From Candidatus Multivoradales bacterium (GTDB taxonomy: Bacteria; Acidobacteriota; Thermoanaerobaculia; Multivoradales; JAHEKO01): a stretch of DNA of 64,000 nucleotides. This document shows, piece by piece, positions 38,492 to 57,413 of the stretch. Below the pieces are notes generated by a model. The model worked only from the letters and a program-made list of their open reading frames with translations, searched no databases and was not told the DNA's origin. How positions within the stretch are numbered: position 1 is the stretch's first letter; every line of letters begins with the position of its first letter. The position numbers and the translations under genes were made by a program. The stretch is from positions 384,001-448,000 of the forward strand of contig CBDCVR010000014.1 of NCBI GenBank assembly GCA_965223155.1, in the 5' to 3' direction.

Positions 38492-39556
38492 ATGACCTAT
38501 CCCGAACGCAACGGCAAGAAGGCGCTGATCACTGGCGTGACCGGACAGGACGGGTCCTACCTGGCCGAGTTCCTGCTCGCCAAGGGCTACGACGTCTGGG
38601 GCATCGTGCGCCGGTCCTCATCGCTCAACACCTCGCGCATCGACCACCTCTACGAGGATCCCCAGGCCAGCGACGTGCGGTTCCGGCTGGTGTTCGGTGA
38701 CTTGAATGACGCCTCGTCGCTCAACCAGATCCTGAAGACCGTTCGACCGGACGAGATCTACAACCTGGGCGCCCAATCCCACGTCAAGGTCTCGTTCGAC
38801 ATCCCGGAATACACCGCCGAGGTAACCGGCGTGGGCGTGGTGCGGCTGTTGGAAGGCATGCGCGAGCTGGATCTCAAGGCGCGCTTCTATCAAGCCTCCT
38901 CCTCGGAGATGTTCGGCAAAGTCGCCGAGACGCCCCAGAATGAGACCACGCCGTTTCACCCGCAGAGCCCGTACGCGGCCGCCAAGGTCTTCGCCTACCA
39001 CATCGTGCGGAACTATCGGGAAGCCTACGGCATGTTCGGGGTCAACGGCATACTCTTCAACCACGAGTCGCCCCGACGAGGCGAAACGTTCGTGACCCGG
39101 AAGATCACCCTGGCGGCCGCCAACATCAAGCACGGCAGCCAGGACTGCCTCTACCTGGGCAATCTGGACGCCAAGCGCGATTGGGGCTTCGCCGGCGACT
39201 ACGTCGACGCTATGTGGCGCATGCTCCAGTGCGACGAGCCTCGGGACTTCGTCGTCGCCACCGGCGAGACCCATACCGTACGCGAGTTCTGTGAGAAGGC
39301 CTTCGCCCGCGTCGACCTGCCGCTCAACTGGGAGGGCGAGGGGCTGCACGAGCGCGGTATCGACCCGGAGGGCCGGACCCTTGTGCAGATCGATCCCCGC
39401 TACTTCCGTCCAGCCGAAGTGGACCTGCTGCTCGGCGACGCGAGCCTCGCCCACGAGGTCCTGGAGTGGTCCCCGCAGGTGACCTTCGAGGGACTGGTCA
39501 ACCTGATGGTTGACGCCGATCTTGAGCTGGTCCAGTCAACGGCCGGCAGCGGCTAG
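38492..39556 (+). CDS. gmd: GDP-mannose 4,6-dehydratase
   Basis: [37 protein letters not shown]. Confidence 0.97.
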
Positions 39557-42561: not shown

Positions 42562-42766
42562 GCCGTCCTCGAGACGGCCGCTCACGATCGATAGTCGGCG
42601 ACTAGCTGCATGCGCCAGCTTCGTAGGCTCGAAGCGATCGTGTGGAAGAGTGCGTGGTAATGATGACGCTCGACTTGAAAACTCGCTGGAATGGGCGGCA
42701 AGCCACCGACAAGCTCGGCCTCTTGCACTGCCCGCAACACGGTGACGAAGCGTAGCACAAGAGACC
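42562..42766. ncRNA. Candidate structured RNA upstream of infC
   Basis: Hairpins at 42717-42766 and 42562-42578, plus a long rod with internal bubble at 42594-42710. Confidence 0.35.
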
Positions 42767-42789
42767 GCTGTGCTAGCCTGCCGCACTTC

Positions 42790-43851
42790 ATGAAGCGTGC
42801 CGCCAGCGCCCTGCCGCCGATCCGCTTCGAGCCCGTCCTCAAGGACTATCTCTGGGGCGGTACCGCTCTGCGCGACCTTTTCGGCCGGGAGCTTCCGAGT
42901 GCGACCGCGGCCGAGAGCTGGGAGGTGTCGGATCACCCCCACGGCCCCACCCCGGTGCGCGAAGGCGAGCTTCAAGGGGCGACCCTGAATGAGCTCATCG
43001 CGGAGCACGGCACCGAGCTCCTGGGCACGCGCTACGTCGACGCGGCCGCGGCCGGGCGCTTCCCGCTCTTGATCAAGATCCTGGACGCGCGCCGCTGGCT
43101 GTCGGTCCAGGTCCATCCCGGAGACGCCTACGCCCGCGAGCGCGAGGGAGATTCCGGCAAGACCGAGATGTGGATCGTGCTCGACGCCGACCCGGAAGCC
43201 GAGATCATCCTGGGTTTTGCGGAAGCGCTCACCGCCGGCGAATTCAACGAAGCCGTCGCCGCCGATCGCCTGGACGAGGTTCTGCAGCGGCTGCCGGCCA
43301 GGGCCGGAGACGCCTTCTTCGTTCGCTCCGGCTTGATCCATGCGATCGGGCCGGGTCTGGTCATCGCCGAGATCCAGCAATCGAGCGACACCACCTACCG
43401 GGTCCACGACTGGGGCCGTCACGACCGGGACGGCCGGCCGCGCGAGCTCCACTTGCAGCAGGCTCGAGACGTGCTGGACTTCTCCGCCATCCGGCCGGCG
43501 GCCGTGTCTCCGGAGCCGCTCGACTTGCCAGGCGGCGAACTCCTGGTGGATTGTCCCGACTTCCGGGTCGAGCGATACCGCCTGGGCGCCTCGCCCGAAG
43601 ACGAGCGGGCGGTGCTTGCCCGCCGCTACGAGGGTCGCTGCGCCGGCGCCACCTTCGAGATCTGGGGAGTGCTGGACGGCTCCGCGACCCTCGAGTGGGA
43701 CGGCGGCCGGCTCGACCTGGAAGCGGTGGACTGGGTGCTGCTACCGGCGACTCTCGGCGCCTTCGCGATTTCGGCCGAAGGTTCGGACACCGAGGATCGC
43801 GACAGCCCCGCAACGCTGGTTCGCGTCCTCAAGCCCGACGAATCGGGCTAG
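42790..43851 (+). CDS. manA: Type I mannose-6-phosphate isomerase
   Basis: YLWGG, ESWE, LSVQVHP, GKTEMW, HAIG, EIQQSSDTTYR. Confidence 0.9.
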   Translation: MKRAASALPPIRFEPVLKDYLWGGTALRDLFGRELPSATAAESWEVSDHPHGPTPVREGELQGATLNELIAEHGTELLGTRYVDAAAAGRFPLLIKILDARRWLSVQVHPGDAYAREREGDSGKTEMWIVLDADPEAEIILGFAEALTAGEFNEAVAADRLDEVLQRLPARAGDAFFVRSGLIHAIGPGLVIAEIQQSSDTTYRVHDWGRHDRDGRPRELHLQQARDVLDFSAIRPAAVSPEPLDLPGGELLVDCPDFRVERYRLGASPEDERAVLARRYEGRCAGATFEIWGVLDGSATLEWDGGRLDLEAVDWVLLPATLGAFAISAEGSDTEDRDSPATLVRVLKPDESG

Positions 43852-43964: not shown

Positions 43965-44873
43965 GTGACCCAGCTGGCCGACGTGATTCTCTACTACCAT
44001 CGCCCTTCCTTCTTCTTGGACCCGGATTGGTCGCCGGTCCCAACCGGCAGGCGTTGCCGCTACACCGGAGACAAGGCGAGGTTCTTCGAGGCAAAAGCCG
44101 TCCTGTTCGACATCCCGACGCTGACGAGCGAGGAGACCGAGCACCTCGCCAAGATTCGGCTGGCCAAGCCCGAGGGACAGATCTGGGTCGCCTTCTCGCA
44201 AGAGAGCGACCAGTGCTTCCCGCTGCTGAACGACCCGGGTTTCATGGCCCTCTTCGACCTGGAGATGTCGTATCGGCAGACTGCCCAAGTCTGGACACCG
44301 TACGTCAACCAAGAGGTCGCGGCGAGAATCTCCTCCGCCCCGGTACTGCCCAAGCGCCATCTGTGTGCGGCCTTCATTTCCAGTCGAGTCAACCTGAGCC
44401 GGCGTCTCGAACTGCTGGAAGGGCTGATGCAGCACCTACCCATTCACTCGTTCGGCAGCCAACTGCAGAACTCCATCTTGGAAGAGGACCAGGGCAACCC
44501 CCAGTACTCGCAGGCCCGCTACCAGACCAAGCTCCGGACCCTCAGACGCTACCGATACACCATCGCCTTCGAAAACAGCTTGAGCGACGACTACGTCACC
44601 GAGAAGTTCTTCCACCCGCTCATGGCCGGCTCGATCCCCGTCTATCTCGGCGCGTCCAACGTAGCCGACTATGCGCCGGGGAAAGACGCCTTCATCAACG
44701 CAGCGAATTTTCCCCATCCCCGGGAACTCGCCGAGTTCCTACTGGAAGCCGAGGACGCCAAGTACCAGGAGTGGCGAAGCCGGCCCTTGGAGCAGTCCTT
44801 TCTCGACCTCGTGTCTCGAACCACCCAGGAGCCGTTCGACGAACTCTGCGATCTGGTGTTCGGCCGAAAGTAA
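43965..44873 (+). CDS. GT10 alpha-1,3/4-fucosyltransferase
   Basis: YRYTIAFENSLSDDYVTEKF...GSIPVYLG FucT signature. Confidence 0.88.
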   Translation: MTQLADVILYYHRPSFFLDPDWSPVPTGRRCRYTGDKARFFEAKAVLFDIPTLTSEETEHLAKIRLAKPEGQIWVAFSQESDQCFPLLNDPGFMALFDLEMSYRQTAQVWTPYVNQEVAARISSAPVLPKRHLCAAFISSRVNLSRRLELLEGLMQHLPIHSFGSQLQNSILEEDQGNPQYSQARYQTKLRTLRRYRYTIAFENSLSDDYVTEKFFHPLMAGSIPVYLGASNVADYAPGKDAFINAANFPHPRELAEFLLEAEDAKYQEWRSRPLEQSFLDLVSRTTQEPFDELCDLVFGRK

Positions 44874-44917: not shown

Positions 44918-46030
44918 CTATCGGCCCGGCCTGTTGCCAGCGGCACCGGCCTCGGCCAGGACTCGCTTGGCCCGGATTTCAACATTACCCGGGTTCGCGG
45001 CTTCGGCCTTCCGCAACCAGGACAGAGCTCGGCTCCAAGCGCCTTCGACCAAGAAGGTAGCGCCGTAGAGACCCCAGGCAAATTCCCCAAATAGCCTCTT
45101 GTCGTACCCCAGGCCGTGAACGGCCAGGCGCGGGACCTCTTCCGCCAGGAGTTGGTCCAGGAAGAATCGAGCCGCCGTCTGCCGGCCTTCCTCGGAGGCC
45201 AGGCGCGCACCCCACCAAAGCAGCAGGGGATCGCAAGGCGCTCGGTCCCAGCCTTCCCGCCAAAGGTCCGCGGCATCCACCAGTCGCGGACCCTCGGCGG
45301 AGAAGTGCAGATCCAGGAGATCCCCGAAGAGCAAGGCGTCCCCAGCCCGAACCGGCCTTGCCCGCAGGGCCTCCAACCCGCGCCGCCAGGCCGTTTCGCC
45401 TTCGGAATAGGCACCCAGTCCGACTCTGGCCTCCCCCAACGCGTGCCAAAGATAGACGCGCTCGGGATCCAGCTCTACGGCCTGGAGCAGCATCGGCAGG
45501 TTGCGCTCGTGCTTGGCCCGCAGGTCCCCTTCGTACCCGAGGTGCTGGATCGCCAGCGGGACGGGACGACAGCCGAGCTCCCCCGCGGCCATAATCCGCT
45601 CGAGGTCCGGAACCACGGTCTCATGAATGGGACTTCGGAACCGAAGGTCGTCTCGATTGCGAAACAGTCGGAACTCGAGATACGGAGTGAGTCGACTGGA
45701 GGCGGAGAATTCCACCAGGCCGGCGATAAGCGCGCGGTCGGCGAGAACCGGAGCCAGCTCACCGCACCGAATCACCCGCTCATCGGCGTCGAGGTAGAGG
45801 ATCCAATCCTCGGCAGCCTCGTCCAAACCCAGGTTCCGCGGCTTGGAGAAGTCATTCCGCCAGGGCTCGTGCACGACCCGGGCCCCGTGCTCCGCCGCGA
45901 CCTCCACGGAGCGGTCCCGCGAACCGGTATCTACGACGACGATCTCGTTGACAAGCTCCGCAACGGAGCGCAGGCACGCGGCAAGGTGCGCCTCCTCATC
46001 GCGAACGATGAGGACGGCGGAGATCCCCAA
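44918..46030 (-). CDS. GT2 glycosyltransferase with TPR repeats (SunS-like architecture)
   Basis: IVRDEE, VDTGSRD, DFSKPRN, LDADE, IHE, HLGY motifs and a C-terminal TPR-like region. Confidence 0.88.
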   Translation of the reverse strand: MGISAVLIVRDEEAHLAACLRSVAELVNEIVVVDTGSRDRSVEVAAEHGARVVHEPWRNDFSKPRNLGLDEAAEDWILYLDADERVIRCGELAPVLADRALIAGLVEFSASSRLTPYLEFRLFRNRDDLRFRSPIHETVVPDLERIMAAGELGCRPVPLAIQHLGYEGDLRAKHERNLPMLLQAVELDPERVYLWHALGEARVGLGAYSEGETAWRRGLEALRARPVRAGDALLFGDLLDLHFSAEGPRLVDAADLWREGWDRAPCDPLLLWWGARLASEEGRQTAARFFLDQLLAEEVPRLAVHGLGYDKRLFGEFAWGLYGATFLVEGAWSRALSWLRKAEAANPGNVEIRAKRVLAEAGAAGNRPGR

Positions 46031-46042
46031 GCGACGGGGACT

Positions 46043-46195
46043 CTAGGTCGTGTTCGGCTGCGCCGAAGCCGGTCGCGCCATCAAGCCCGACATCGTGAAG
46101 GAGGCCACGAGCGGGGCTACGAAACCGGCCCCAATCGCCTTGCGAATGAAACCGCGCCGCGACTCATCAATGGATTCGAGGATCTTCTCTTGCAT
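46043..46195 (-). CDS. 50-aa putative RiPP precursor with twin-arginine leader
   Basis: Manual translation MQEKILESIDESRRGFIRKAIGAGFVAPLVASFTMSGLMARPASAQPNTT. GAAGGAGGAA RBS 5 nt before ATG. Stop is 12 nt before the GT2-TPR start. Confidence 0.75.
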   Translation of the reverse strand: MQEKILESIDESRRGFIRKAIGAGFVAPLVASFTMSGLMARPASAQPNTT

Positions 46196-46255
46196 CGAAC
46201 TTCCTCCTTCTCCGGCCTGTCAGTCGGCACTCCGGGATATCCCTAGATTGAGCGG

Positions 46256-46285
46256 AGTATCGCAAACCGGTTTCGCGGCTGTCAA
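46256..46285 (-). promoter_or_regulatory. Putative dedicated promoter of the precursor gene, with palindrome in the spacer
   Basis: Minus strand TTGACA-18 bp-GATACT, with AAACCGGTTT palindrome at 46264-46273. Confidence 0.4.
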
Positions 46286-46325
46286 TCAGACGGTCACCCG
46301 GACGGAGCTGAGCCTTTCCGTCGGC

Positions 46326-47162
46326 CTAGCCCCGGGAACTATGGCTTCGGGAGGCATTCTCGAGAGAAGCAATCGCCTCGTCGATTCGGCCCAGAGTCAA
46401 CCGCCAGCCACCGCTTGCCCCCAGGAAGCTCGCCGCGGCCAGCAGGCTCTTTCGCGTCTCGCCCCAACGAAAGGAGTTCCTGAGGAGGTTCTCGATCAAG
46501 TGATGGGGCGGCGCGGGCTCCAACGAGCTCTTACCACCGTGATTCGGGGTGATCGATACCAGCCGATCGATCGGAGCTCGCTTGAGCCTCCACTGAGACC
46601 CAATCCTTCGGGGCGGGACACTCCAGACAACCTCGTCGCCGGAGCCCATGCGGGGCTGGCCGGCCAGAATCGCTCCGAGCCCGGGCACGACCTCGTCGCT
46701 TCCCTTCTTGAGTTGCAGACAACGTGGGAACGCAATCACCTCGCCCCCGGAAAAGAGTGCCAGCTCGTCGCCCTCGACCTCATGCCCCGCACTCAGCAAC
46801 GCGGCGGCCAGCGTCGACTTTCCGGCGTGCTTTGCGCCCAAGATCAGCAGGCGGCAGCCCGCCACCGTTGTCGTCACCCCGTGAAAGACGATCCAACCGG
46901 CCAGAGCCAGGCGCTCGATGGCTTGGCAGTAGGCCCGCTGGTAGAGAATGAAGAGTGCATCCCCGGCCGAAGGGGCGGAATCGCAAAGGTCTCCGGCGCG
47001 CAGGATCTCGAACGGGCCGTCGCCTCGCACCTCGAATCGCAGCAGCTTCTTGGGCTCAAGTGGCTGCTCGGCGACGGTTGCGGCATAGGCCAGGAGCGAC
47101 TCGAGCTCGCGGCTGGCGGTCTCGATCTCAACCTGGCAGCCGAGCAGTTGAAACGAAATCAA
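46326..47162 (-). CDS. HPr kinase-related P-loop kinase
   Basis: FHGV...LILGAKHAGKSTLAAALLSAGHEVEGDE. Overlaps the PqqD stop codon. Confidence 0.8.
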   Translation of the reverse strand: MISFQLLGCQVEIETASRELESLLAYAATVAEQPLEPKKLLRFEVRGDGPFEILRAGDLCDSAPSAGDALFILYQRAYCQAIERLALAGWIVFHGVTTTVAGCRLLILGAKHAGKSTLAAALLSAGHEVEGDELALFSGGEVIAFPRCLQLKKGSDEVVPGLGAILAGQPRMGSGDEVVWSVPPRRIGSQWRLKRAPIDRLVSITPNHGGKSSLEPAPPHHLIENLLRNSFRWGETRKSLLAAASFLGASGGWRLTLGRIDEAIASLENASRSHSSRG

Positions 47163-47458
47163 TCGGTTTCGGCCGGAACTTCGGACTCGACGGCGACCAG
47201 AATACTCTCGTCCATGAGCTGCTGGACTCCCGCACGGACCTCCTCGACCGGCGTCGCGTCCAACTGAAACAGGTCGGCGACGAGCTTAGGCAGGTCCGAG
47301 GTCGCGCGGGTTCCGTCGCACAGTTCGAAGAGGACCGCCGCGGTCTGGTTCAAGTGGTGAACCCGCTGCGTCTCCGGGAAGAAGATCACCAAGCCATCCT
47401 GGGCGTCATGCACCTCGATACCGTCGCAGCGGCGAAGAAACTCGGGGACGGCTGTCAT
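47159..47458 (-). CDS. PqqD-family RiPP recognition element (stand-alone)
   Basis: VHHLNQTAAVLFELCDG...EEVRAGVQQLMDESIL, a typical PqqD winged-helix pattern; 99 aa. Confidence 0.85.
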   Translation of the reverse strand: MTAVPEFLRRCDGIEVHDAQDGLVIFFPETQRVHHLNQTAAVLFELCDGTRATSDLPKLVADLFQLDATPVEEVRAGVQQLMDESILVAVESEVPAETD

Positions 47459-47471
47459 GCGTCTGCCGATC

Positions 47472-48758
47472 CTAGCACCCAGGCAAGGTGGTTCCCGCTC
47501 GGGCGGCAGCCACCACGGCGGCCAGCTTTTCGCTCACGACCGAGCGCTCGTGGTGGGCTCGAACCCAGCGAAGCGCTCGCTCCGCCTGACGCCGAGCCCC
47601 GTCGCCGCCGGCGATCAGCTCACCGGCGGCGCGCGCCAGGTCCTCGCTGGTAGCGCCGACCCGCGCAAACCGCCGGCCCGCCGGTCCGAGCCCAGCCGAG
47701 CCCTCGGGAGTGGTCACCACGGGAACACCCCAGGCGAAGGCCTCGAGAATCTTGACGTGACTCCCGCCGCCTGCTCGGGTGGGCACTACCGTCGCCGAAG
47801 CCCGTCGGTAGAAGGGAGCGAGATCAGCTACCCAGCCATGCGTCGAGACGCCAGGCGTTCGCGCCAACCGCTCGAGAGCTGCGCGCGGGCCCTTCCCCAC
47901 CAGGTCCACTTGGGTTTCCGGATGGTCCGCGCGAACCATCGGCAAGACAGCGTGGACGAGCCGCTCAGCCGCGTCCAGGTTTGGAAGGTAGTGGAAGTTG
48001 CCGAGCAGAAGCAGATTCTTACCACCCGGCGCACCCGGGTTCTGACTGTCGGCCGGTGGTATCGCGACCGCGTTTTCGATGGCTTCGACCGACTCCAGCC
48101 CGTGTCGGCTTGCGAGGCTCAGCGCGTCCCGTTCGCTAGCGGCAAGGACGCGATCGAACCACGGCAGCACCGCCGAGCCGAAATGTAGATAGGCTGCAGC
48201 GTCCGCGTCCAAGGACCCGGCAAGATCGTCTTCCGAGCGGTCTCTCGAGATGGCTGCAAGGCTCCGCAGGGTCGCGACGTCGTCGTCGTCGGCATCCAAG
48301 ATCCACACCGACGGCCCAGAATGCCGCTGCCGATCGGCCGCCGTGAACCCATCCAGCCCGACCAGCATGCCCGCGAGGTACAGCCTCAACACGTAGAGCG
48401 TGTCGAACCGGCGACCCAGCCGCTCGTCAATGGCGGCGCCCAGCTCCGGTGTGGCGCCTCTCGCCAACTCCGGCAGGGCGCCACAGCGTTCCAACAGCTC
48501 ACGGCTCGCCGGCCGCTCGAGCCAGGCGCGCACCGCTTCTCTGCCGGTCATGGGCTCGAACATCTCGACCCGATCGGCATATTCGGACAGCCAAGACGAG
48601 TCGAACCGATCCCGCCCGGGCTCGGCGACCGGGACGATACCGACCGTCAGACGGTGGGAGCGTGCCAGAGCCACCACGGCCAGAGCCGCCCGCATCGCCA
48701 ATCCGTTGCCGGAGAGGGCCGGGGTGATCGGGGTAAGCAGCAGCCCGCGCGGTGCTAT
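47472..48758 (-). CDS. GT4 glycosyltransferase (start at ATA 48758 or TTG 48701)
   Basis: LGNFHYLPNLDA, GGGSHVKILEAFAWGVPVVTT. Conserved-looking LLLTPITPALSGNGLAMR lies upstream of the ORF-track start. Confidence 0.82.
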   Translation of the reverse strand: MAPRGLLLTPITPALSGNGLAMRAALAVVALARSHRLTVGIVPVAEPGRDRFDSSWLSEYADRVEMFEPMTGREAVRAWLERPASRELLERCGALPELARGATPELGAAIDERLGRRFDTLYVLRLYLAGMLVGLDGFTAADRQRHSGPSVWILDADDDDVATLRSLAAISRDRSEDDLAGSLDADAAAYLHFGSAVLPWFDRVLAASERDALSLASRHGLESVEAIENAVAIPPADSQNPGAPGGKNLLLLGNFHYLPNLDAAERLVHAVLPMVRADHPETQVDLVGKGPRAALERLARTPGVSTHGWVADLAPFYRRASATVVPTRAGGGSHVKILEAFAWGVPVVTTPEGSAGLGPAGRRFARVGATSEDLARAAGELIAGGDGARRQAERALRWVRAHHERSVVSEKLAAVVAAARAGTTLPGC

Positions 48759-48787
48759 TCTTTGCCTCCTCTCCGAGCCCCGGAACC

Positions 48788-49654
48788 GTGGTCAGAATTC
48801 CTCGCCGTGCGCACTTCGTCTTTGGATTGAAGCGATCTCGGTCCCCGTTCCACTTCCTCCATTATGTTGCCATCGAATCCTGCCGGCAGGTGTTGCGACC
48901 GAACGAGATCTTCTTTCATTACCATCACCTGCCCTTCGGCGAGTTCTGGGACCTGGTTCGTCCCCATCTACACTTGCACAGGGTCCCTCTGGTCGATGAG
49001 GTCCTGGAAACAAACTACGACGAGCGGCTGGTGCCACCCGAGTATCGATACGCCCACCACGCAGATTTCGTCCGCTTGGACGCCTTGATCGAGCACGGCG
49101 GGGTTTACGCCGACATCGATACGGTCTTCGTCAACCCGTTCCCTGAGTCTCTATTCGAGGGGTCTTTCGTGATCGGCCGGGAGCGGCCGGTCCCGGACGA
49201 ACGCACCGGTGAGCTCAAGCCGTCGTTGTGCAATGCCCTGCTGATGGCCGAACCGGGCAGCAAGTTCGCGATCGAATGGCGACGCCGCATGGCCGGCGCT
49301 CTCAACGGCACCTGGAACAACCACGCATGCTTCTTGCCGGAGCGGCTGAGTCGCGAAATGCCTGGCGAGTTGGACGTCGAGCCCGAGGAATCCTTCTTCC
49401 CCGTGCCCTGCACGCAGGAGGGCCTCGAGCGCTTGCTCGAGGGCGGCTGGATCGAACTCGACCATAGCTACTCCGTCCATCTGTGGAGCCATGTCTGGTG
49501 GGATGCCGAGCGCCTGGACTTCAGCCCTCGGCACAGCGGAGACTTCACGTACCAGGCCGTGCGTGAAGGCGGCGGCGGGAGTGCGCTCGAGCGCTTGGCG
49601 CACGCCTACCTTCCGGACCTGGAGGTAGACGACCTGGGACCATCCGTCAGATGA
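48788..49654 (+). CDS. GT32-like DXD glycosyltransferase
   Basis: IPRRAHFVF, ADFVRLDALIEHGGVYADID, VHLW. Confidence 0.82.
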   Translation: MVRIPRRAHFVFGLKRSRSPFHFLHYVAIESCRQVLRPNEIFFHYHHLPFGEFWDLVRPHLHLHRVPLVDEVLETNYDERLVPPEYRYAHHADFVRLDALIEHGGVYADIDTVFVNPFPESLFEGSFVIGRERPVPDERTGELKPSLCNALLMAEPGSKFAIEWRRRMAGALNGTWNNHACFLPERLSREMPGELDVEPEESFFPVPCTQEGLERLLEGGWIELDHSYSVHLWSHVWWDAERLDFSPRHSGDFTYQAVREGGGGSALERLAHAYLPDLEVDDLGPSVR

Positions 49655-50859
49655 CGGACGCCTTCGGGCTCAAGCTCGTGACGACGACGCCCGGGGGAGG
49701 GTACGGCGATGCCGCCCTCGAATACCTTCGCGGCCTGACCGATCTGGGAATTCCGGTCACCTGGCAGGTAGTGCGGGACGGGCATTGGGGGGCCCCGGCG
49801 AGACGAGTCGACTTGCCGTTCGACCTTCGGCGGAACTCCGCCCGGCTCGCATCGCTCTTCGACCGTTCTATTCCCCACGACACCTTCTTGCTTTGTATCC
49901 CTCCGCCGGCCTGGCATCTACGTTGGCTCCAGCAGGAGGAGCACACGACGCCCTTTGCTGGCGCCACCTGGGAGGCGGATCGCCTGCCGGCGAGTTGGCC
50001 GCCAGTGCTCAACCACTTCAGCACCGTCGTCGTACCTTCCGAGTTCAACCGCTCGGTGTTCGTCGCCAGTGGCGTGCGAGTTCCCGTCGAAGTCGTCCCC
50101 TATTGCGCCCGCGAGGTCCAGCCCGTGCCGGGAGGCCCACCCTGGGGCAGGGTCGCGGACGACGACTTCGTCTTCTACACCCTGGGTTCCTGGACCGCCC
50201 GCAAGGCTATCGAGGAAACGATTCGCGCCTACCTCGGAACGTTCACCGGCGACGATAGGGTCGCGCTCATCGTCAAGACGGGGGCCATCGACTGGATCGC
50301 GATCAAAGGCATGACCGTGGAGGAGAGAACCGAAGGGCCACCCCACCTGGGCACGAGTTGGTGGCAGCTCGCCCAGATCGTGGGCGAGTACGAGAATCCG
50401 GCCAAGATTCACCTCGTCGCCGACAGGTTGCCTCTACGAGAAATCGATCGTCTTCATACCCGGGGGGACTGCTTTGTCTCCTTAACACGCGGCGAGGGTT
50501 GGGGCCTAGGACCCTTCGACGCCGGTCTTTTCGGCAATCCGTCGATCGTGACCGGATGGGGTGGGCAGCTCGACTTCCTGGGGAGCGACTACCCGTTTCT
50601 CGTTGACTACGAGCTCGAATCGACGGCCGACTCTCCCGCGAACGGTTACCTCGATCCACCGCGTCAGATCCGCTGGGCGAAGCCGGACGTCGGGCAGGCC
50701 AGCCGGCTCATGCGTCGGGTCTTCGACGAGCGCCGGCAGGCACGGGAGCTGGGCGCCGAGCTCGGCCGGCGGCTCCGGTCCCGCTACCGGCGGCAGACCG
50801 TCTGCCGCCGCTTGGCCGAGGTGATGAATCTCGCCGTCAGACAACCGGAGGCCCGGTGA
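49651..50859 (+). CDS. GT4-like glycosyltransferase
   Basis: GGYG, TWE, VPSEFN, RK, DCFVSLTRGEGWGL, VTGWGGQ. Confidence 0.82.
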   Translation: MTDAFGLKLVTTTPGGGYGDAALEYLRGLTDLGIPVTWQVVRDGHWGAPARRVDLPFDLRRNSARLASLFDRSIPHDTFLLCIPPPAWHLRWLQQEEHTTPFAGATWEADRLPASWPPVLNHFSTVVVPSEFNRSVFVASGVRVPVEVVPYCAREVQPVPGGPPWGRVADDDFVFYTLGSWTARKAIEETIRAYLGTFTGDDRVALIVKTGAIDWIAIKGMTVEERTEGPPHLGTSWWQLAQIVGEYENPAKIHLVADRLPLREIDRLHTRGDCFVSLTRGEGWGLGPFDAGLFGNPSIVTGWGGQLDFLGSDYPFLVDYELESTADSPANGYLDPPRQIRWAKPDVGQASRLMRRVFDERRQARELGAELGRRLRSRYRRQTVCRRLAEVMNLAVRQPEAR

Positions 50860-51650
50860 AGACCGTTCTGGTCAATTACGCAACGGGCCCGTTCGCCGGA
50901 TATAGGGCGCTGCTGACTCTGACCGGGCAGCGGGCCGGCTGCGACGATTGCTTGGAGTTCGGCCCCCAGGACCTGGACGCGGAGTTTCGTCGCAGGCACC
51001 GCGAGACCCTCGCCGCTCGCCGCGGCGCCGGCTACTTCCTATGGAAGCCCTACATCTTGGTCCGGGCCTTGCAACGCGTGGCACCCGGAGACGTCCTTTT
51101 CTATTGCGACGCCGGGATTCATTGCGTTCGACCGATCCAGCCGCTCCTCGACCTCCTCGAGGGCGGCTCTTCGGACCTCGTCATTCTGGACGGAGGCTTC
51201 CGCGAGTCACAATACACGAAACGGGATGCGTTCCTCCTGATGGGCTGTGACTCGAGCGAATTCGTCGAGACTCCCCAGAGCTTCGCCGGCGCGTTCTTGT
51301 TGCGCAAGACAGAGTGGGCCGAACGGTTTGCGCGCGAGTTTCTCGCCTATGCCTGCGATGACCGAGTCTTGACCGACCGAGCCAATGTGCTGGGAGAAGA
51401 CGACTACCCGGATTTCATCGAACATCGTCACGATCAATCGATTCTGAGCCTGCTGGCCAAGCGGTACGGCATCTCGTTCACCCCCAATCCGTTTCTGGGC
51501 CAGGGCCTAGTCGAAAGAACCGGCCCCCGCATTCTGAACCACACGCGCCAGGCCTACCCGCTCAAGGACGTGGTTCTCTACTTGCTGGCGCGCGGTGCGT
51601 TGCGGATCGAAGACCTCCCGAGCCTCGAGCGAGCGGTCGGCCATGAGTGA
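50856..51650 (+). CDS. Putative GT-A fold glycosyltransferase-like protein
   Basis: RGAGYFLWKPYI, YCDAG, HRHDQSILSLL; translationally coupled within the GT operon. Confidence 0.6.
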   Translation: MKTVLVNYATGPFAGYRALLTLTGQRAGCDDCLEFGPQDLDAEFRRRHRETLAARRGAGYFLWKPYILVRALQRVAPGDVLFYCDAGIHCVRPIQPLLDLLEGGSSDLVILDGGFRESQYTKRDAFLLMGCDSSEFVETPQSFAGAFLLRKTEWAERFAREFLAYACDDRVLTDRANVLGEDDYPDFIEHRHDQSILSLLAKRYGISFTPNPFLGQGLVERTGPRILNHTRQAYPLKDVVLYLLARGALRIEDLPSLERAVGHE

Positions 51651-51743
51651 TCATGGATCGGCAGTCGCCCTGAGAGAACCTTCCGAGCCGCCTTCCGCTG
51701 AGCTCCCGAGCCGGCTGGCCTCGGTCTCCTCCATGCTCTCTCG

Positions 51744-52952
51744 ATGCCCCGCCTCCTGAACCAAGACTCGAACGCCGCGGTCGAGTGGCTGGGGCGCGCC
51801 TGCGGACGGTTCTTGCAGGCGCGCGAAGGGGCGGCGCCACCCCTGGCTCTTGACGTTGGGGTCGACGCCCTGCAACCTCTAGCACCCGCGCACGGCCTCG
51901 AGCCGCTGCTGCATGGCTTGGTCGCGACCGGCGGCATCGCGCGCGAGACCGTTCCGGCCTCGCTCCGGGAGCGCTGGTTGGCGGACTATTGTCGAACGAC
52001 GGTGGCGAACCGGCGCGCGCTCTCGGAGCTGGAGCGCTTGCTGGACAGTTGCCGCCGGCAGTCCGTCGAGATACTCGTATTCAAGGGACTGGCACACGTC
52101 GCGGGGGTCTACCGGGATCCCGGCTTGCGGCCGATGGTGGACGTGGATCTGCTGTGCCGGCCAGCCGCTCTAGCGGCACTCGAACGGGCATTCGTCGAAG
52201 AGGGTTATGAGCCCGTCGACTGGTCGATCCATCACGCGACCTTCGCGACAAAGGCAGGTCTCCTACGGTTTGAGGTCCATCAGAGCCTCTGGGATTTGAT
52301 CGCAGAAGGTGGCCGTTTTCTCGATGAGGTCTGGCGGTCCCAGACGGTGGCCGAGGTGGACGGTTTTCGTTTCTGTGTTCCTTCGGTCGAGGTCAGCGTA
52401 GTCCTAGACACCGCCCATGCCCTGCAGCACGACCTCGGCCAGGGATTGCGGCAAGCCGTGGATCTCGTCGGCTCCCTGGCGACACCGGGCCTTTCGGTCC
52501 CCCGGCTGGACGCGTTGCTCGGCGAGACAGACCTAAAGCCGGAATTCGTCCGAGTCGCGGGTCTCTATCGCCAGTTTCTGGGCGACGGACTCTTCCCAGA
52601 GGCGCTCGCGATACCCGAGCCGCATCTCTCCGATCGAGAATTCGCGCAACAACGTTGGTCCAGCCTGGCCTTGGACTCCGGGGTTCGTTTCCTGGGAGAG
52701 CTCCGCGCCCGGACGGGCCCCGCCGGCAAGCTGAGACACCTGTGGCGTTTGCTGGTTCGGCCCACCGGCCTCGGCGGCATGGGCGGAATGGGCGGCAGGA
52801 AGATCAGGAATCTCGGCCGCTGGCGCCAGCACCTGGCCAACCTCGCGAAACGCGCTTGGCGCAAGAGCCTGGGCCGGTCTCGGAGCCGGAGCGCCCTGGT
52901 AGGCTCCTGGAAGGCCCAGGTCTACCGCCGACGCGGCCACTCTGGCAGATGA
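51744..52952 (+). CDS. Nucleotidyltransferase family protein (NTP_transf_5-like; start uncertain)
   Basis: FKGLAH..YRDPGLRPMVDVDLL and FEVH motifs. Confidence 0.8.
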   Translation: MPRLLNQDSNAAVEWLGRACGRFLQAREGAAPPLALDVGVDALQPLAPAHGLEPLLHGLVATGGIARETVPASLRERWLADYCRTTVANRRALSELERLLDSCRRQSVEILVFKGLAHVAGVYRDPGLRPMVDVDLLCRPAALAALERAFVEEGYEPVDWSIHHATFATKAGLLRFEVHQSLWDLIAEGGRFLDEVWRSQTVAEVDGFRFCVPSVEVSVVLDTAHALQHDLGQGLRQAVDLVGSLATPGLSVPRLDALLGETDLKPEFVRVAGLYRQFLGDGLFPEALAIPEPHLSDREFAQQRWSSLALDSGVRFLGELRARTGPAGKLRHLWRLLVRPTGLGGMGGMGGRKIRNLGRWRQHLANLAKRAWRKSLGRSRSRSALVGSWKAQVYRRRGHSGR

Positions 52953-53174
52953 TTCTGAGAGCCTCTCCGGAAGACCTGGGGGCCGGCGGTGGCGGCCTCC
53001 GGCGCCCATTCAGAGAGCCATCCAATCGGCGGCCGCGGCACGCCGCTCGCCCCCCATGCCAGACCGAATGCGGGGGCCTACTGGGGTTCCCTTTGGACCG
53101 GCACTTCGATATATTCCGCGCCGGCCGCGTTCCGCGGTCACACCCCCAAACATCAAGCAAGCGAGTCACGAACT

Positions 53175-54887
53175 ATGTCGAATGTTGCGACGCAGGACTT
53201 ACGTCCGCTTCTCGTCTCCCCCGATCAGGCCGAAGAGCTGAAATCCGAGGCAATACATCTCAAGTCCTGGGATCTGAACTTTCAGCAGATCTGGGACAGC
53301 GAGCTGCTCCTGAACGGAGCCTTCTCCCCTCTGGCCGGATACCACACCGAGGCCGACTATCGAGGCGTGCTGGACGGCATGCGCACCGCCGACGGAGCGC
53401 TCTGGCCGATGCCGATCACCCTCGACGTCACCGAAGAGTTCGCCGAAGGGCTGACCCAGGGCGAGCGCGTTGCCCTTCGCCACCCCGAAGGCATGGTCCT
53501 GGCGATCCTGACGGTCTCCGACATCTGGCGCCCGGACGCAGACGAGGAAGCCTCCAAGGTCTTCGGCACCACGAACCCGGACCATCCCGGGGTCTTTCAG
53601 CTCAAGCACGAGACCCATCCCGTGTACCTGGGCGGACGGCTCGAAGGCGTCGAGCTGCCTCCGCACCACACCTACCAGCGCCACCGGCACACGCCGGAGC
53701 AACTGCGGGCCGAGTTCGATCGGCTGGGCTGGAAGCGCATCGTGGCTTTCCAGACCCGGAATCCGATGCACCGCGCGCACGTCGAGCTGGTACAGCGCGC
53801 CGCGCTCGAAAACGACGCGAAGATCCTGATCCATCCGGTCGTCGGACGCACCAGCCCGGGCGACGTGGACTACTTTTCACGGGTGCGCTGCTACGAGGCG
53901 GTGGTCGACCAGCTGCCGCCGCAGGTTGCCAAGCTCAGCCTCTTGCCGCTGGCGATGCGCATGGGCGGTCCGCGCGAGGCACTCTGGCACGCCCTCATCC
54001 GGCGCAACTACGGCTGCACGCATTTCATCGTCGGACGCGACCACGCCGGTCCACGGGACCGGGACGGCAACTCGTTCTACGGCCCCTACGACGCCCAGGA
54101 GCTCGTCAAGCAACATGCCGACGAGACCGGCATCGAGCTGGTTCCCTTCCAGGAGGTCGTCTACTGCCAGGAGCGGGGCGAGTACATGGCCCGCTCGGAG
54201 GTCCCCGAGGACGCCACGATTCTGAATCTCTCGGGCACCGAGTTGCGCCGCCGGCTTCGCGAGGGCGCCGACATTCCCTCCTGGTTCTCGTTTCCGGAGG
54301 TCATCACCTCGTTGCGCCGCCGCTATCCGCCGCGCTCGCGCCAGGGCTACACCATCTTCTTTACCGGCCTTTCAGGGTCCGGCAAGTCCACGGTCGCCCA
54401 GATCCTGATCGCCAAGCTGATGGAGATCGACGATCGGCCGGTGACACTCCTGGACGGCGACATCGTGCGCAAGAACTTGTCGAGCGAGCTGGGCTTTTCG
54501 AAAGAGCACCGCGACCTCAACATCCAGCGCATCGGCTTCGTGGCCAGCGAGATCACCAAGAACCGAGGCGCCGCGGTATGCGCTCCAATCGCGCCCTACG
54601 AGAAGACTCGGCGCCAGGTCCGAGACCTGATCGAGCTCCACGGGGGCTTCGTCGAGGTCCACGTCTCGACACCGCTCGAGGTCTGTGAAGATCGCGACCG
54701 CAAGGGTCTGTACGCCAAGGCACGGGCCGGACTGATCAAGGAATTCACCGGCATCGATGACCCATACGAGGAGCCGGACACTCCCGAGGTCGTGATCGAC
54801 ACCTCGCTCCTGACCGCCGAACGCGCGGCTCTCAAGGTCGTCGACTTCCTGCGCCGGGAAGGCTTCCTCGAGCGCTCCCGCTCCTGA
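53175..54887 (+). CDS. sat/cysC: Bifunctional sulfate adenylyltransferase / adenylylsulfate kinase
   Basis: FQTRNPMHRAH, VGRDHAG, FTGLSGSGKST, LDGD, RDRKGLY. Confidence 0.95.
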   Translation: MSNVATQDLRPLLVSPDQAEELKSEAIHLKSWDLNFQQIWDSELLLNGAFSPLAGYHTEADYRGVLDGMRTADGALWPMPITLDVTEEFAEGLTQGERVALRHPEGMVLAILTVSDIWRPDADEEASKVFGTTNPDHPGVFQLKHETHPVYLGGRLEGVELPPHHTYQRHRHTPEQLRAEFDRLGWKRIVAFQTRNPMHRAHVELVQRAALENDAKILIHPVVGRTSPGDVDYFSRVRCYEAVVDQLPPQVAKLSLLPLAMRMGGPREALWHALIRRNYGCTHFIVGRDHAGPRDRDGNSFYGPYDAQELVKQHADETGIELVPFQEVVYCQERGEYMARSEVPEDATILNLSGTELRRRLREGADIPSWFSFPEVITSLRRRYPPRSRQGYTIFFTGLSGSGKSTVAQILIAKLMEIDDRPVTLLDGDIVRKNLSSELGFSKEHRDLNIQRIGFVASEITKNRGAAVCAPIAPYEKTRRQVRDLIELHGGFVEVHVSTPLEVCEDRDRKGLYAKARAGLIKEFTGIDDPYEEPDTPEVVIDTSLLTAERAALKVVDFLRREGFLERSRS

Positions 54888-54900
54888 CCCTTCCGACTCG

Positions 54901-55680
54901 ATGTACGAAGAGATCCTCGAGCGGATCGCGGAGTCGCTGGAAGCGGCACGCGAGGTCCTGGAGCAGTTCACGCCGGGCCGGATCGAAGCTCGGCACAAGG
55001 CCGGCGGTGATCCGGTCACTGAAGCCGACCTGGCGGTCAACGCCGTTCTGGAGCGCATCCTGCCCCGCTCCGGCGAGGCCTGGCTGTCCGAGGAAACCAA
55101 GGACGACCCGTCACGCCTCGAAGCCGAGCGCGTCTGGATCGTGGATCCGATCGACGGCACCAAGGAGTTTGTAACCGGGATTCCGGAGTGGTGCGTGTCG
55201 GTCGGCTACGTAGTCGGCGGCGAGGCTGTTGCCGGCGGCATTCTGAGTCCCTCGACCGACCAGTTGATCCTGGGCTCCCTGGAGTCGGGAGTGACCCTCA
55301 ACGGCGAACCGGTCCGGCCCCGGCCGACGAAAGACCTGGCCGACGCCGTGGTCCTCGCCAGCCGCAGCGAAATCCGGCGCGGCGAATGGGAGCAGTACGC
55401 GGAGAGCGCGTTCACCTTGCAGCCGATGGGCTCGGTGGCTTTCAAGATGGCCCTGGTCGCGGCCGGCGAGGTTGACGCCACCTGGACCCTGGTGCCCAAG
55501 AACGAATGGGACGTGGCGGCTTCCACGGCCCTGGTTCACGCCGCCGGCGGCAAGGTCTTCGTGCCGGGTGCCGGAGCGCCCAGCTTCAACCGGGCCGATC
55601 TGAAGTTTCCCGGCCTCGCCGCACTCGGGCCCGGCACCGAAGAGCTCTTCGGGGACGAGTCCTTCACTCTGCGCCGCTAG
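54901..55680 (+). CDS. cysQ: 3'(2'),5'-bisphosphate nucleotidase (CysQ/inositol monophosphatase family)
   Basis: DPVTEAD, SEE, VDPIDGT, EWDVAA; adjacent to sat/cysC. Confidence 0.85.
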   Translation: MYEEILERIAESLEAAREVLEQFTPGRIEARHKAGGDPVTEADLAVNAVLERILPRSGEAWLSEETKDDPSRLEAERVWIVDPIDGTKEFVTGIPEWCVSVGYVVGGEAVAGGILSPSTDQLILGSLESGVTLNGEPVRPRPTKDLADAVVLASRSEIRRGEWEQYAESAFTLQPMGSVAFKMALVAAGEVDATWTLVPKNEWDVAASTALVHAAGGKVFVPGAGAPSFNRADLKFPGLAALGPGTEELFGDESFTLRR

Positions 55681-56784: not shown

Positions 56785-57275
56785 CGCGCTGGATCCGTGG
56801 CCGTAGCTTCGCTGCCGGCGGCGCCGAACGCGGTCTCGATTCTGGCCGCCAGCTCGTCCCGCGCCACCCGAAAGGCTTCGAGACGCTCCTGCCGGTCCCC
56901 CTCGACGGCGGCGGGGTCGGCGATCGACCAGTGCAGCGAGCGCCGGGCGCTTGGAAACACCGGACAGGACTCGCGAGCGCCGTCACAGACGGTCACCACC
57001 GTCTCGATCGCCTCGTCCAGGAACCGCTCGTAGGTCTTGGAGGTCTGCTCCGAGATGTCGGCGCCCAGCTCGCGCAGGACCTCGATGGCTTCAGAACGAA
57101 CACGGGTGGCGAGGGTCCCGGCGCTGGCCACCTCCCGATGCGGATATTTGTGGCGGAACAGCCCTTCAGCCATCTGCGAGCGCGCGCTATTGTGGGTACA
57201 CAGAAACAGGATCTTGCCAGGCGTCAGGGGACCTCGACCTCCGTGGATCTTCCGGCTAGTAGACTTTCCGGCCAT
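56781..57275 (-). CDS. arsC: LMW-PTP-type arsenate reductase / phosphatase
   Basis: FLCTHNSARSQMAEG, VTVCD...CPVFP, WSIADP. Start uncertain. Confidence 0.85.
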   Translation of the reverse strand: MAGKSTSRKIHGGRGPLTPGKILFLCTHNSARSQMAEGLFRHKYPHREVASAGTLATRVRSEAIEVLRELGADISEQTSKTYERFLDEAIETVVTVCDGARESCPVFPSARRSLHWSIADPAAVEGDRQERLEAFRVARDELAARIETAFGAAGSEATATDPAR

Positions 57276-57413
57276 GCGCATTCTAGTCGACGGCCCTGGC
57301 GCGCGCCGGCCACGGCTCGGGCCCGCCCCGAGCCGGATCGGGCTCGACTTGATGCCAACCTTCAGAGCCCGCGCCTCGGCGGCGGCCCATGGCCCTCGGG
57401 AGGGGTCGGGCCG

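Follow-up and report, generated by a model that had tools for sequence, protein, structure and literature searches.

Can a ribosomal peptide that is almost entirely a twin-arginine translocation (Tat) signal be the substrate of a peptide-modification pathway? The question is raised by an open reading frame (ORF) at positions 46043..46195, on the minus strand, of the 64,000-nucleotide stretch from Candidatus Multivoradales bacterium that we analyzed (contig CBDCVR010000014.1; hereafter the window). On this strand the gene order is GT1-type glycosyltransferase, PqqD-like RRE (recognition element of RiPPs, peptides made on ribosomes and modified after translation), HprK-like kinase, peptide and GT2/TPR glycosyltransferase. 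A reading of the DNA from its letters alone (the sequence-only reading) had proposed that the signal peptide doubles as the leader bound by the RRE, and that Tat export and signal peptidase stand in for a dedicated transporter and protease. With a confidence slightly better than even, we suggest that the peptide is the ribosomal substrate of the surrounding cassette, with a Tat signal doubling as an RRE-binding RiPP leader and a short core that would be glycosylated and/or phosphorylated in the cytoplasm, exported via Tat and freed by signal peptidase.

A short peptide gene under purifying selection

Inspection of the sequence showed an ORF that starts with ATG and has 50 codons followed by a TAG stop, encoding MQEKILESIDESRRGFIRKAIGAGFVAPLVASFTMSGLMARPASAQPNTT. 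The consensus of Tat signals is S/T-R-R-x-F-L-K in the n-region, and the peptide has the hallmarks of such a signal: the twin-arginine motif SRRGFIRK (codons S12-K19; 46139..46162) precedes a 21-residue uncharged stretch (A20-A40) as h-region, a basic c-region residue (R41) and an AxA site of the signal-peptidase type (A43-S44-A45; 46061..46069). The predicted core then consists of five residues, QPNTT (Q46-T50; 46046..46060), comprising an Asn-x-Thr tag and a C-terminal Thr, and the peptide is devoid of Cys. The description of the product in the sequence-only reading, as a Tat-like signal with a five-residue cargo, was thereby borne out. Within the h-region lies FVAPLV (F25-V30; 46106..46123), which conforms to an RRE-binding-type motif, [F/Y]xxPx[V/I/M] (motif definition from PMC13381572).

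The strong ribosome-binding site that had also been claimed is a Shine-Dalgarno sequence, AAGGAGG, located 7 nt ahead of the ATG (46203..46209), and no alternative in-frame start is open upstream. The kinase and peptide genes are separated by 130 nt, in which a σ70-like promoter match (TTGACA, 18 nt, TG-GATACT; 46256..46285) is situated; it is a consensus match only, with a score of 10/12, whereas 50 shuffled sequences contained 0.0 such sites on average. Folding of the 141 nt upstream of the peptide was no better than that of shuffled sequences (z 0.92), no terminator-like site was found, and an Rfam scan of the window returned a tRNA only. The sequencing runs listed as containing the locus comprise four DNA entries from one study and no RNA run. 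The G+C content at third codon positions (GC3) of the ORF, 0.78, is at the level of the neighboring genes.

The nearest relatives from genomes are two 54-residue peptides, one from an Acidobacteriota metagenome-assembled genome (MAG; locus L013, 72% identity) and one from a Halieaceae MAG (locus L014, 70% identity). Over 31 aligned codons from SRR onwards, synonymous-only differences outnumber replacements in each pairing (11:5 for the window and L013, 16:9 for the window and L014, 18:6 for L013 and L014). We conclude that the peptide gene is real and under purifying selection.

The twin-arginine-type leader defines a protein family

A phmmer scan of 1.84 billion (1.84e9) protein representatives (E ≤ 1e-3) gave 85 matches, 83 of which were judged genuine, all with a leader of about 45 residues in common; the two that were dropped (P0012 and P0016) are internally repetitive low-complexity sequences unrelated to the others. 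The best representative matches are 55-67 residues long, and a word-index search, confined to proteins of 27-88 residues, yielded six relatives of 56-58 residues with E values of 9e-10 to 3.5e-12. From an alignment of 89 members we derived the leader consensus [VIL]L-x-x-V-D-x-S-R-R-x-F-[LVI]-[RK]-K-x-x-G-x-x-F-x-x-P-x-V-A-S-F-S-M-x-G-L-x(4)-A-x-A, in which R14, P28 and F33 are invariant. Conservation of the twin-arginine pair, on which the sequence-only reading had depended, is evident in this alignment: R14 is present in 89/89 members and position 13 is Arg in 80 and Lys in 9 of them, followed by F16 (77/89), [LVI]17 (89/89), [RK]18 (77/89) and [KR]19 (78/89). The n-region is conserved as well (L6, V9, D10), as are the AxA columns (A43 in 67/89, A45 in 70/89).

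Around the invariant P28 (89/89), position 25 (-3) is Phe in 82 and Tyr in 5 of the 89 members, and position 30 (+2) is Val, Ile or Met in 87, placing a [F/Y]xxPx[V/I/M] motif inside the Tat-like h-region. For comparison, discrete lasso RREs recognize [Y/W]xxPx[L/V/I/F/A] and leaders of linear polyphosphorylated peptides (LPPs) carry YxxPxVL..., according to Popov et al. (Nat Commun 2026, PMC13381572). The leader is covered by no Pfam or NCBIfam model; the sub-threshold matches (E ≤ 1) that recur are to Tat-signal families, namely TIGR02811 (32/89), TIGR01409 (13/89) and Rieske SoxL2 (8/89). Separately, 11 of the 89 leaders weakly match TIGR04117, a Cys-Xaa-Xaa-Xaa repeat radical-SAM target family, and given these matches other peptide-modification targets may carry similar Tat-like leaders.

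Members range from 50 to 254 residues; 35/89 have at most 70 residues and 20/89 more than 120, some of the long ones being fusions of the leader to pentapeptide repeats or to a DUF11 domain. The sequence-only reading had warned that the homologues might be long Tat proteins and the ORF a truncated remnant. We found instead that the closest relatives are as short as the peptide itself and that 14/89 members end within three residues of their first Asn-x-Ser/Thr, finishing ...N-x-S/T, while the same leader also heads cargos of up to 200 residues and more.

The cassette recurs in several phyla

Related loci were gathered with a narrower alignment (A4) that holds only leaders with [VI]ASF[TS]MSGL, i.e. 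one sub-branch of the family. The order GT1-PqqD-like RRE-HprK-like kinase-peptide-GT2/TPR recurs in Acidobacteriota, in Alpha- and Gammaproteobacteria and in soil metagenomes. Nine loci come from species-representative genomes (four Acidobacteriota MAGs, two Korobacteraceae, one Halieaceae, two Alphaproteobacteria) and 24 from metagenomes; many of the metagenome loci are near-identical, so that locus counts are not independent and correspond to about two dozen distinct leader proteins. With local hidden Markov models (HMMs), a PqqD gene was detected upstream of the peptide in 23/24 loci that leave at least 1 kb of room (the exception being L002), including 14/14 metagenome loci outside the HMM seeds, and of the 26 loci with 600 bp or more available, 20 have a GT2/TPR gene directly downstream. 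The six loci without an adjacent downstream GT2/TPR gene all carry a pentapeptide-repeat cargo; there the order is GT1-PqqD-cargo, and the kinase, and in L016 also GT2/TPR, is found a few kb away. The cassette families in the nine genome loci were independently confirmed with Pfam. NTP_transf_5 (PF14907) is also present in L013 and L014, and no exporter or peptidase recurs across the nine genome loci.

The family is rare and patchily distributed. The window's own genome has a single leader-family member, the peptide gene described here, and no member was found in the four same-genus genomes searched. Among 61 relatives, two (G000 and G040) have the leader at a convincing E value, the remaining matches being generic Tat signals of long proteins (E ≥ 0.002), and a sample of 301 genomes from the phylum, with 15 candidates scored per genome, again gave two. 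In addition, the GC3 of the cluster genes (44918-52952) is 0.77-0.80, compared with 0.83-0.88 for flanking genes. Together with the identity of about 70% to peptides from other phyla, these data point to horizontal spread.

Eukaryote-type transferases (Anp1, Mannosyl_trans3, GT10) are added in several loci, and Golgi-type mannosyltransferase genes (Anp1, Mannosyl_trans3) lie just upstream of the cassette in L016 (3934-5493), L017 (5068-7423), L019 (4673-5723), L020 (5049-6629) and L021 (5007-7421). In L015 (9530-10678), L016 (9842-10681) and L023-L030, the leader and Cys-Ser-Asn-x-Thr repeats are fused to pentapeptide-repeat proteins, with PqqD directly upstream; in L015, an FkbM-type methyltransferase moreover bears a second PqqD domain as a fusion, and 3-7 kb upstream there are four HprK-like paralogues. 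L002 (genome G040; 773-1656) encodes a leader-bearing 165-residue DUF11 protein, then a 127-residue protein with an IPTL-CTERM-like end, then GT2/TPR. The score of the IPTL-CTERM-like sorting signal, 20.1 bits, is just below the cut-off of 20.5, and the arrangement hints at a link to exosortase-type surface sorting.

Enzymes encoded next to the peptide

The gene immediately downstream of the peptide, which the sequence-only reading had not recognized as such, encodes a SunS/ThuS-like peptide glycosyltransferase with GT2 and TPR domains (44918..46030, minus strand) and starts 12 nt past the peptide stop. In sequence searches of the PDB, its glycosyltransferase matches were GmaR (2.5e-18), SunS (6.3e-13 and 1.2e-12), the ThuS entry 7msk (2.3e-10) and, marginally, mannosyl-3-phosphoglycerate synthase (0.008), and no other glycosyltransferases. 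In a Foldseek search with an AlphaFold model (pLDDT 87.2, pTM 0.81), the six top matches, all to SunS and ThuS, covered about 378 columns (E 1.9e-17 to 6.6e-16), and TarS came next at 2.2e-8. The DxD motif is kept, with D81-A-D83 invariant. By these matches and the retained DxD, the GT2/TPR protein is related to enzymes that attach sugars directly to polypeptides in the cytoplasm. Its score on the SunS equivalog model TIGR04195 is 51.7 bits, with a cut-off of 350.

The HprK-like P-loop kinase (46326..47162, minus strand) has invariant GxxGxGK[ST]TL and GDE motifs and scores 22 bits on Hpr_kinase_C and 37.4 bits on TIGR04352 (cut-off 200), both below the cut-offs. Its model (pLDDT 87.8) matches structures of phosphoenolpyruvate carboxykinases and HprK/P, which share one fold. 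The PqqD-like RRE (47159..47458, minus strand) scores 28.1 bits on TIGR03859 (cut-off 46) and 17.1 bits on TIGR04353 (cut-off 35); it is 33-41% identical to homologues that pass the Pfam PqqD model, and its profile finds the lasso RRE TfuB1 as top PDB match (E 0.022). The first gene of the cassette encodes a GT1/GT4-type glycosyltransferase identified by profile matches (Glyco_trans_1_4; 47472..48701, minus strand).

An Asn-x-Ser/Thr tag follows the leader

A second feature that had gone unnoticed in the sequence-only reading is a conserved, acceptor-like Asn-x-Ser/Thr tag, a sequon classically used as acceptor by oligosaccharyltransferases. Asn-x-[ST] is present in 82/112 distinct sequences within the 25 residues that follow the leader, compared with 31.3 ± 4.3 (maximum 45 in 2000) when those 25 residues are shuffled, and the whole post-leader part contains 116 sequons in 5270 residues versus 56.9 ± 6.7 in shuffles. 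The first sequon mostly starts 9-11 residues past the leader "GL". Two or more sequons occur in 21/89 members, and P0024 has GNMT repeated four times.

The most conserved residue of the tag is Asn, which is present after the leader in 108/112 distinct sequences. In line with the suggestion that homologues retain a terminal Ser/Thr, a hydroxyl two positions past the near-invariant Asn is kept in most members; it is absent from 30/112. By analogy, the +2 Ser/Thr would fit the chemistry of SunS/ThuS/GmaR and of HprK, yet a quarter of the members lack it.

In some relatives from Korobacteraceae and other Acidobacteriota, the leader and an Asn-x-Thr tag precede a 30-45-residue tail made up almost entirely of His with Lys/Asp/Glu (L017 9950-10252, L018 2775-3071, L019 8263-8523, L021 9968-10240; also L037, L043, L044 and L046). 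Their sequences suggest that these His-rich members may be exported, glycosylated metal-binding peptides.

A proposed route of modification and export

The proposal that a signal peptide may double as an RRE-binding leader gains support that is comparative and in silico throughout: the RR pair is kept, short homologues exist, the RRE-type motif is invariant at its Pro, and PqqD is nearly always encoded upstream. TatC and two TatA/B genes are present elsewhere in the genome. From these observations we infer Tat export, cleavage at ASA|Q and RRE binding. The absence of a transporter and a protease from the cluster, which the sequence-only reading sought to explain, is also seen in our scan: among the ORFs scanned at 22-63 kb of the window, we found no peptidase, ABC (ATP-binding cassette) or major facilitator exporter, lipid-carrier priming transferase, flippase, lasso cyclase or radical SAM enzyme. 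A rhomboid gene is located 19 kb away.

What follows is the order of events that we infer, including the modified residue, the modifying group and the biological role. The first approximately 45 residues would serve both as twin-arginine export signal, SRRxF[LIV][RK]K, and as RiPP leader that the PqqD-like protein would bind at its [F/Y]xxPx[V/I/M] motif. The RRE would grip the leader in the cytoplasm and present the C-terminal Q-P-N-T-T. The SunS/ThuS-like GT2/TPR enzyme would add a first sugar on Asn48, in the Asn-x-Thr sequon, or on Thr50. The HprK-like kinase would then phosphorylate a Thr hydroxyl, and NTP_transf_5 may extend the phosphate, as in phosphorylated lasso peptides and LPPs. 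GT1, a GT10 enzyme and a DXD glycosyltransferase would elaborate the first sugar from GDP-mannose and GDP-fucose supplied by neighboring genes. The bulky product would exit through the housekeeping Tat translocase, a system that takes large cargo assembled beforehand, and signal peptidase I would cleave at ASA|Q, releasing a free decorated pentapeptide.

Individual steps have precedents. In pseudomycoidin, an HprK homologue phosphorylates a Ser of the precursor and an NTP-transferase adds hexoses onto the phosphate (PMC8498205). The LPP kinase poly-phosphorylates core residue Ser3, leader removal falls to a SipW-like signal peptidase helped by the RRE, and the product leaves via an MsbA-like pump (PMC13381572).

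A predicted complex of the PqqD-like protein and the peptide scored 0.51, compared with 0.01 for the best of three controls, with a contact agreement between runs of at least 93% and a partner pLDDT of at least 67. The mark applied is reached by 58/80 solved complexes and 2/110 mismatched pairs, and at scores of at most 0.60 by 7 of those 80 and by both mismatches; because solved structures exist for RRE-leader complexes such as TfuB1, the pass may be due to likeness and not to binding, and the prediction lends weak support to the proposal. Several observations weigh against it. The peptide scores 10.3 bits on TIGR01409 (cut-off 16.7), all of the TIGR01409 and TIGR02811 matches in the family are likewise below cut-off, and the peptide has no match to Pfam TAT_signal (PF10518). 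Conservation of the leader far exceeds that of ordinary signal peptides, which could mean that it mainly serves recognition by enzymes and not export. The two candidate acceptors each have exceptions, given the members that lack Asn-x-[ST] and the G068 peptide, which ends ...VPHGS without any Asn. To our knowledge, no GT2 enzyme that glycosylates Asn is known; SunS and ThuS act on Cys/Ser/Thr. NTP_transf_5 is encoded 5.5 kb away on another operon and is one of six such genes in the genome. Finally, no sulfotransferase was recognized despite the presence of genes for 3'-phosphoadenosine 5'-phosphosulfate (PAPS) supply, the 264-residue ORF of that operon having atlas leads to glycosyltransferase-like clusters only.

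A more far-reaching version of the proposal strikes us as rather doubtful, if worth stating. Bacteria of several phyla would assemble a complex glycan, which might contain fucose, mannose, phosphate or sulfate, on a Tat-borne tag of about five residues in the cytoplasm and export it by Tat without lipid carrier, flippase or ABC exporter. The SunS-like GT2/TPR protein would be a new cytoplasmic Asn glycosyltransferase and the PqqD-like protein both an RRE and a Tat proofreading chaperone, and the leader would tag whole folded proteins (pentapeptide-repeat, DUF11, His-rich) in the same way.

Alternative explanations

The pathway might operate as proposed with the Tat-like segment remaining uncleaved, as an N-in/C-out inner-membrane anchor whose decorated tag serves as tethered primer or anchor for a surface glycan or exopolysaccharide. 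We consider this unlikely, despite several observations in its favor: the uncharged stretch of 21 residues is long enough to span a membrane, GT1 resembles transferases of PEP-CTERM/XrtA systems (1e-29, below cut-off), and the locus of the cassette is a glycan-building one, having at least six transferase-like genes plus sugar-nucleotide genes, just as LPP clusters lie within capsular polysaccharide loci (PMC13381572). Moreover, no priming transferase, flippase or polymerase for a lipid-carrier glycan route was seen among the ORFs scanned. However, without cleavage it would be difficult to account for the conserved AxA that immediately precedes the tag, and the long members with pentapeptide-repeat or DUF11 cargo look like soluble exported proteins. 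The h-region is, in addition, rich in Gly/Ser/Thr, as is the case in cleaved Tat signals.

Another way to account for the leader is that it serves RiPP recognition only, with the RR pair and the hydrophobic block binding the RRE, the kinase or the TPR domain, and that the product stays inside or uses an unlinked exporter. Conservation along the whole leader, unlike that of generic signal peptides, and scores short of the curated Tat-signal cut-offs speak for this idea. Glycocins use dedicated ABC-type exporters. LPP and lasso relatives do so as well (PMC13381572). Yet the most conserved stretch of the leader matches the Tat consensus residue by residue (S-R-R-x-F-[LIV]-[RK]-K) and is followed by an uncharged region and AxA, the curated families that are repeatedly touched are solely Tat-signal ones, and an exporter or peptidase neither recurs in the nine genome loci nor turned up among the window ORFs scanned. 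We assign a low probability to a leader that functions in recognition alone.

It is quite improbable that we are dealing with an ordinary peptide that leaves by Tat or Sec and only afterwards receives an N-glycan, from a periplasmic oligosaccharyltransferase using a lipid-linked glycan made by the neighboring transferases. The sequon would suit such an enzyme and the locus is rich in glycosyltransferases, but no STT3/PglB-type transferase (PF02516, E ≤ 0.01) was found in the genome, which is 98.66% complete, the ORFs scanned in the locus included neither a priming transferase nor a flippase, and the conserved partners of the peptide (RRE, P-loop kinase, SunS-like glycosyltransferase) are of soluble, cytoplasmic type. 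As no STT3-type oligosaccharyltransferase was found, any Asn glycosylation would have to be cytoplasmic. Hardly any weight remains for a chance ORF or a decayed remnant of a longer Tat-exported protein: although long-cargo members exist, we rejected this reading because the nearest relatives, from two phyla and with the same gene order, are equally short, many other members are short as well, some ending right after the sequon, and synonymous changes exceed replacements in a gene that has its own ribosome-binding and promoter-like sites.

Relation to known systems

Taken as a substrate that is modified before Tat export, the peptide would belong to a system whose logic is that of an LPP or phosphoglycosylated-lasso pathway joined to a glycocin-type transferase, but that falls outside the LPP, lasso, glycocin and HPr-rel-A classes. 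As in the LPP clusters of Bacillota, a discrete RRE, a kinase resembling HprK and a PF14907 NTP-transferase are all present (PMC13381572). Further likenesses are a conserved N-terminal leader with an aromatic-xxPx-aliphatic RRE motif, a variable C-terminus of widely differing length, leader removal by an enzyme of the type-I-signal-peptidase kind and a modified residue a few positions from the cleavage site (both predicted here), and a setting within a glycan locus. Unlike here, where neither was found in the ORFs scanned or in the nine genome loci, LPP clusters encode a SipW-like peptidase and an MsbA-like exporter; the leaders also differ, the twin-arginine-type SRRxFLKK plus AxA contrasting with YxxPxVLxHQxIxFETxxS of LPPs and only the [F/Y]xxPx[V/I/M] part being common (PMC13381572). 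As neither a SipW-like peptidase nor an exporter was found there, and because of its different leader, we do not class the peptide as an LPP. In addition, a SunS-like GT2/TPR gene is fixed beside the peptide here, the conserved core feature is Asn-x-Ser/Thr, and the carriers are Acidobacteriota and Proteobacteria; LPPs and paeninodins are described as restricted to Bacillota, and the accessible text of that work contains no mention of twin-arginine, Acidobacteria or Pseudomonadota (Popov et al., PMC13381572).

The GT2/TPR protein gave a full-length structural match to the S/O-glycosyltransferases SunS and ThuS of glycocins (PDB 7msn, 7msp, 7msk), with which it shares a GT2 domain followed by a helical/TPR-like domain and a position beside a ribosomal peptide gene. 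In known cases, glycocin enzymes act directly on the ribosomal peptide encoded next door. Glycocins have a double-glycine-type leader, and their acceptor is a Cys-containing, disulfide-stapled helical core. The present system differs in that the core has neither Cys nor a helix-loop-helix, an RRE and a kinase are added and the leader is Tat-like; lacking a Cys-stapled core and with a score on the SunS model far below cut-off, it is not classed by us as a glycocin.

Phosphorylated and phosphoglycosylated lasso peptides (paeninodin, pseudomycoidin) share the combination of PqqD-type RRE, HprK homologue and PF14907 nucleotidyltransferase (PMC8498205). The lasso HprK homologue phosphorylates the hydroxyl of the C-terminal Ser of the precursor (PMC8498205); many short members of the leader family end exactly at Ser/Thr. 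The peptide is linear and has a different export route, and a search with Pfam and NCBIfam gave no match to a cyclase or B2 leader protease among the window ORFs scanned, because of which it is not a lasso peptide. Membership in the HPr-rel-A system is likewise unsupported, given that the kinase (TIGR04352) and the PqqD-like protein (TIGR04353) miss the equivalog cut-offs.

NapD, TorD and DmsD are small cytoplasmic chaperones that hold the twin-arginine signal of one substrate until its maturation ends, and we propose an equivalent role for the PqqD-like protein. They serve cofactor insertion into large redox enzymes and have a fold unrelated to PqqD, whereas maturation here would be the glycosylation or phosphorylation of a five-residue tail. 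In the HMW1C system, the N-glycosyltransferase (NGT) is a GT41 enzyme, and its substrates are large adhesins exported by type V secretion. The candidate enzyme here is instead a GT2/TPR protein, the substrate can be a pentapeptide and the Asn acceptor is putative. NGT/HMW1C is a soluble cytoplasmic enzyme that glycosylates the Asn of Asn-x-Ser/Thr before export without a lipid carrier (PMC5303269).

We found neither a Tat-type RiPP leader nor this cassette described in the literature searched, which lay mostly outside subscription journals. If our proposal is correct, this would be an apparent first case of a general Tat signal that is also a RiPP leader, and it would explain a pathway without its own protease and exporter. 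It would also provide a concrete substrate for the cassettes of RRE, HprK-like kinase and NTP_transf_5 that are common in Gram-negative genomes and so far look "orphan". With Asn-x-Ser/Thr encoded beside a SunS-like enzyme, there may be a cytoplasmic N- or O-glycosylation chemistry of a new kind, with Tat as exit for pre-glycosylated cargo, which would be of interest for glycoengineering. As the family is small and sharply defined by leader HMM and cassette, genome mining and heterologous expression should be straightforward.

Other genes of the window

Sugar-supply and transferase genes flank the cassette, all on the plus strand and assigned by profile matches unless stated otherwise. On one side are genes for a GDP-mannose 4,6-dehydratase (gmd; 38492..39556), as GDP-fucose/deoxyhexose supply, for mannose-6-phosphate isomerase (manA; 42691..43851), as sugar supply, and for a GT10 fucosyltransferase-like protein (43965..44873). 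On the other side, a divergent operon begins with a DXD sugar-binding glycosyltransferase (Gly_transf_sug; 48752..49654), followed by a 402-residue protein with a weak GT4-like match (49651..50859; E 0.023, below cut-off), a 264-residue protein without Pfam or NCBIfam match, for which the atlas lead alone indicates a resemblance to nucleotide-diphospho-sugar transferases (50856..51650), and the NTP_transf_5 nucleotidyltransferase (PF14907; 51744..52952; 121.7 bits), which belongs to the family of the "N" enzymes of lasso and LPP clusters. The operon ends with PAPS genes (52989-55680), namely a bifunctional sulfate adenylyltransferase/adenosine 5'-phosphosulfate kinase (PAPS supply; 52989..54887) and a phosphatase of the CysQ/inositol-monophosphatase family that scores below equivalog cut-offs and possibly removes 3'-phosphoadenosine 5'-phosphate (54901..55680). 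That no sulfotransferase was recognized leaves two options: one of the unassigned ORFs (49651-50859, 50856-51650) encodes a novel type of this enzyme, or the PAPS genes have nothing to do with the cluster.

Elsewhere, the genome has three HprK-like genes that are distant paralogues and another five NTP_transf_5 genes (G000 C14:350715-356556, C13:850899-851087, C7:664-897), one kinase/NTP_transf_5 pair being located approximately 28-33 kb ahead of the window start; no leader-family peptide was found beside these genes. In the window itself, a 922-residue ORF (56931-59699) has a coding-like GC3 of 0.80 and no Pfam match, and a response-regulator/PAS/GGDEF/EAL protein is encoded beside a hybrid histidine kinase at 27272-30939, about 15 kb from the cluster.

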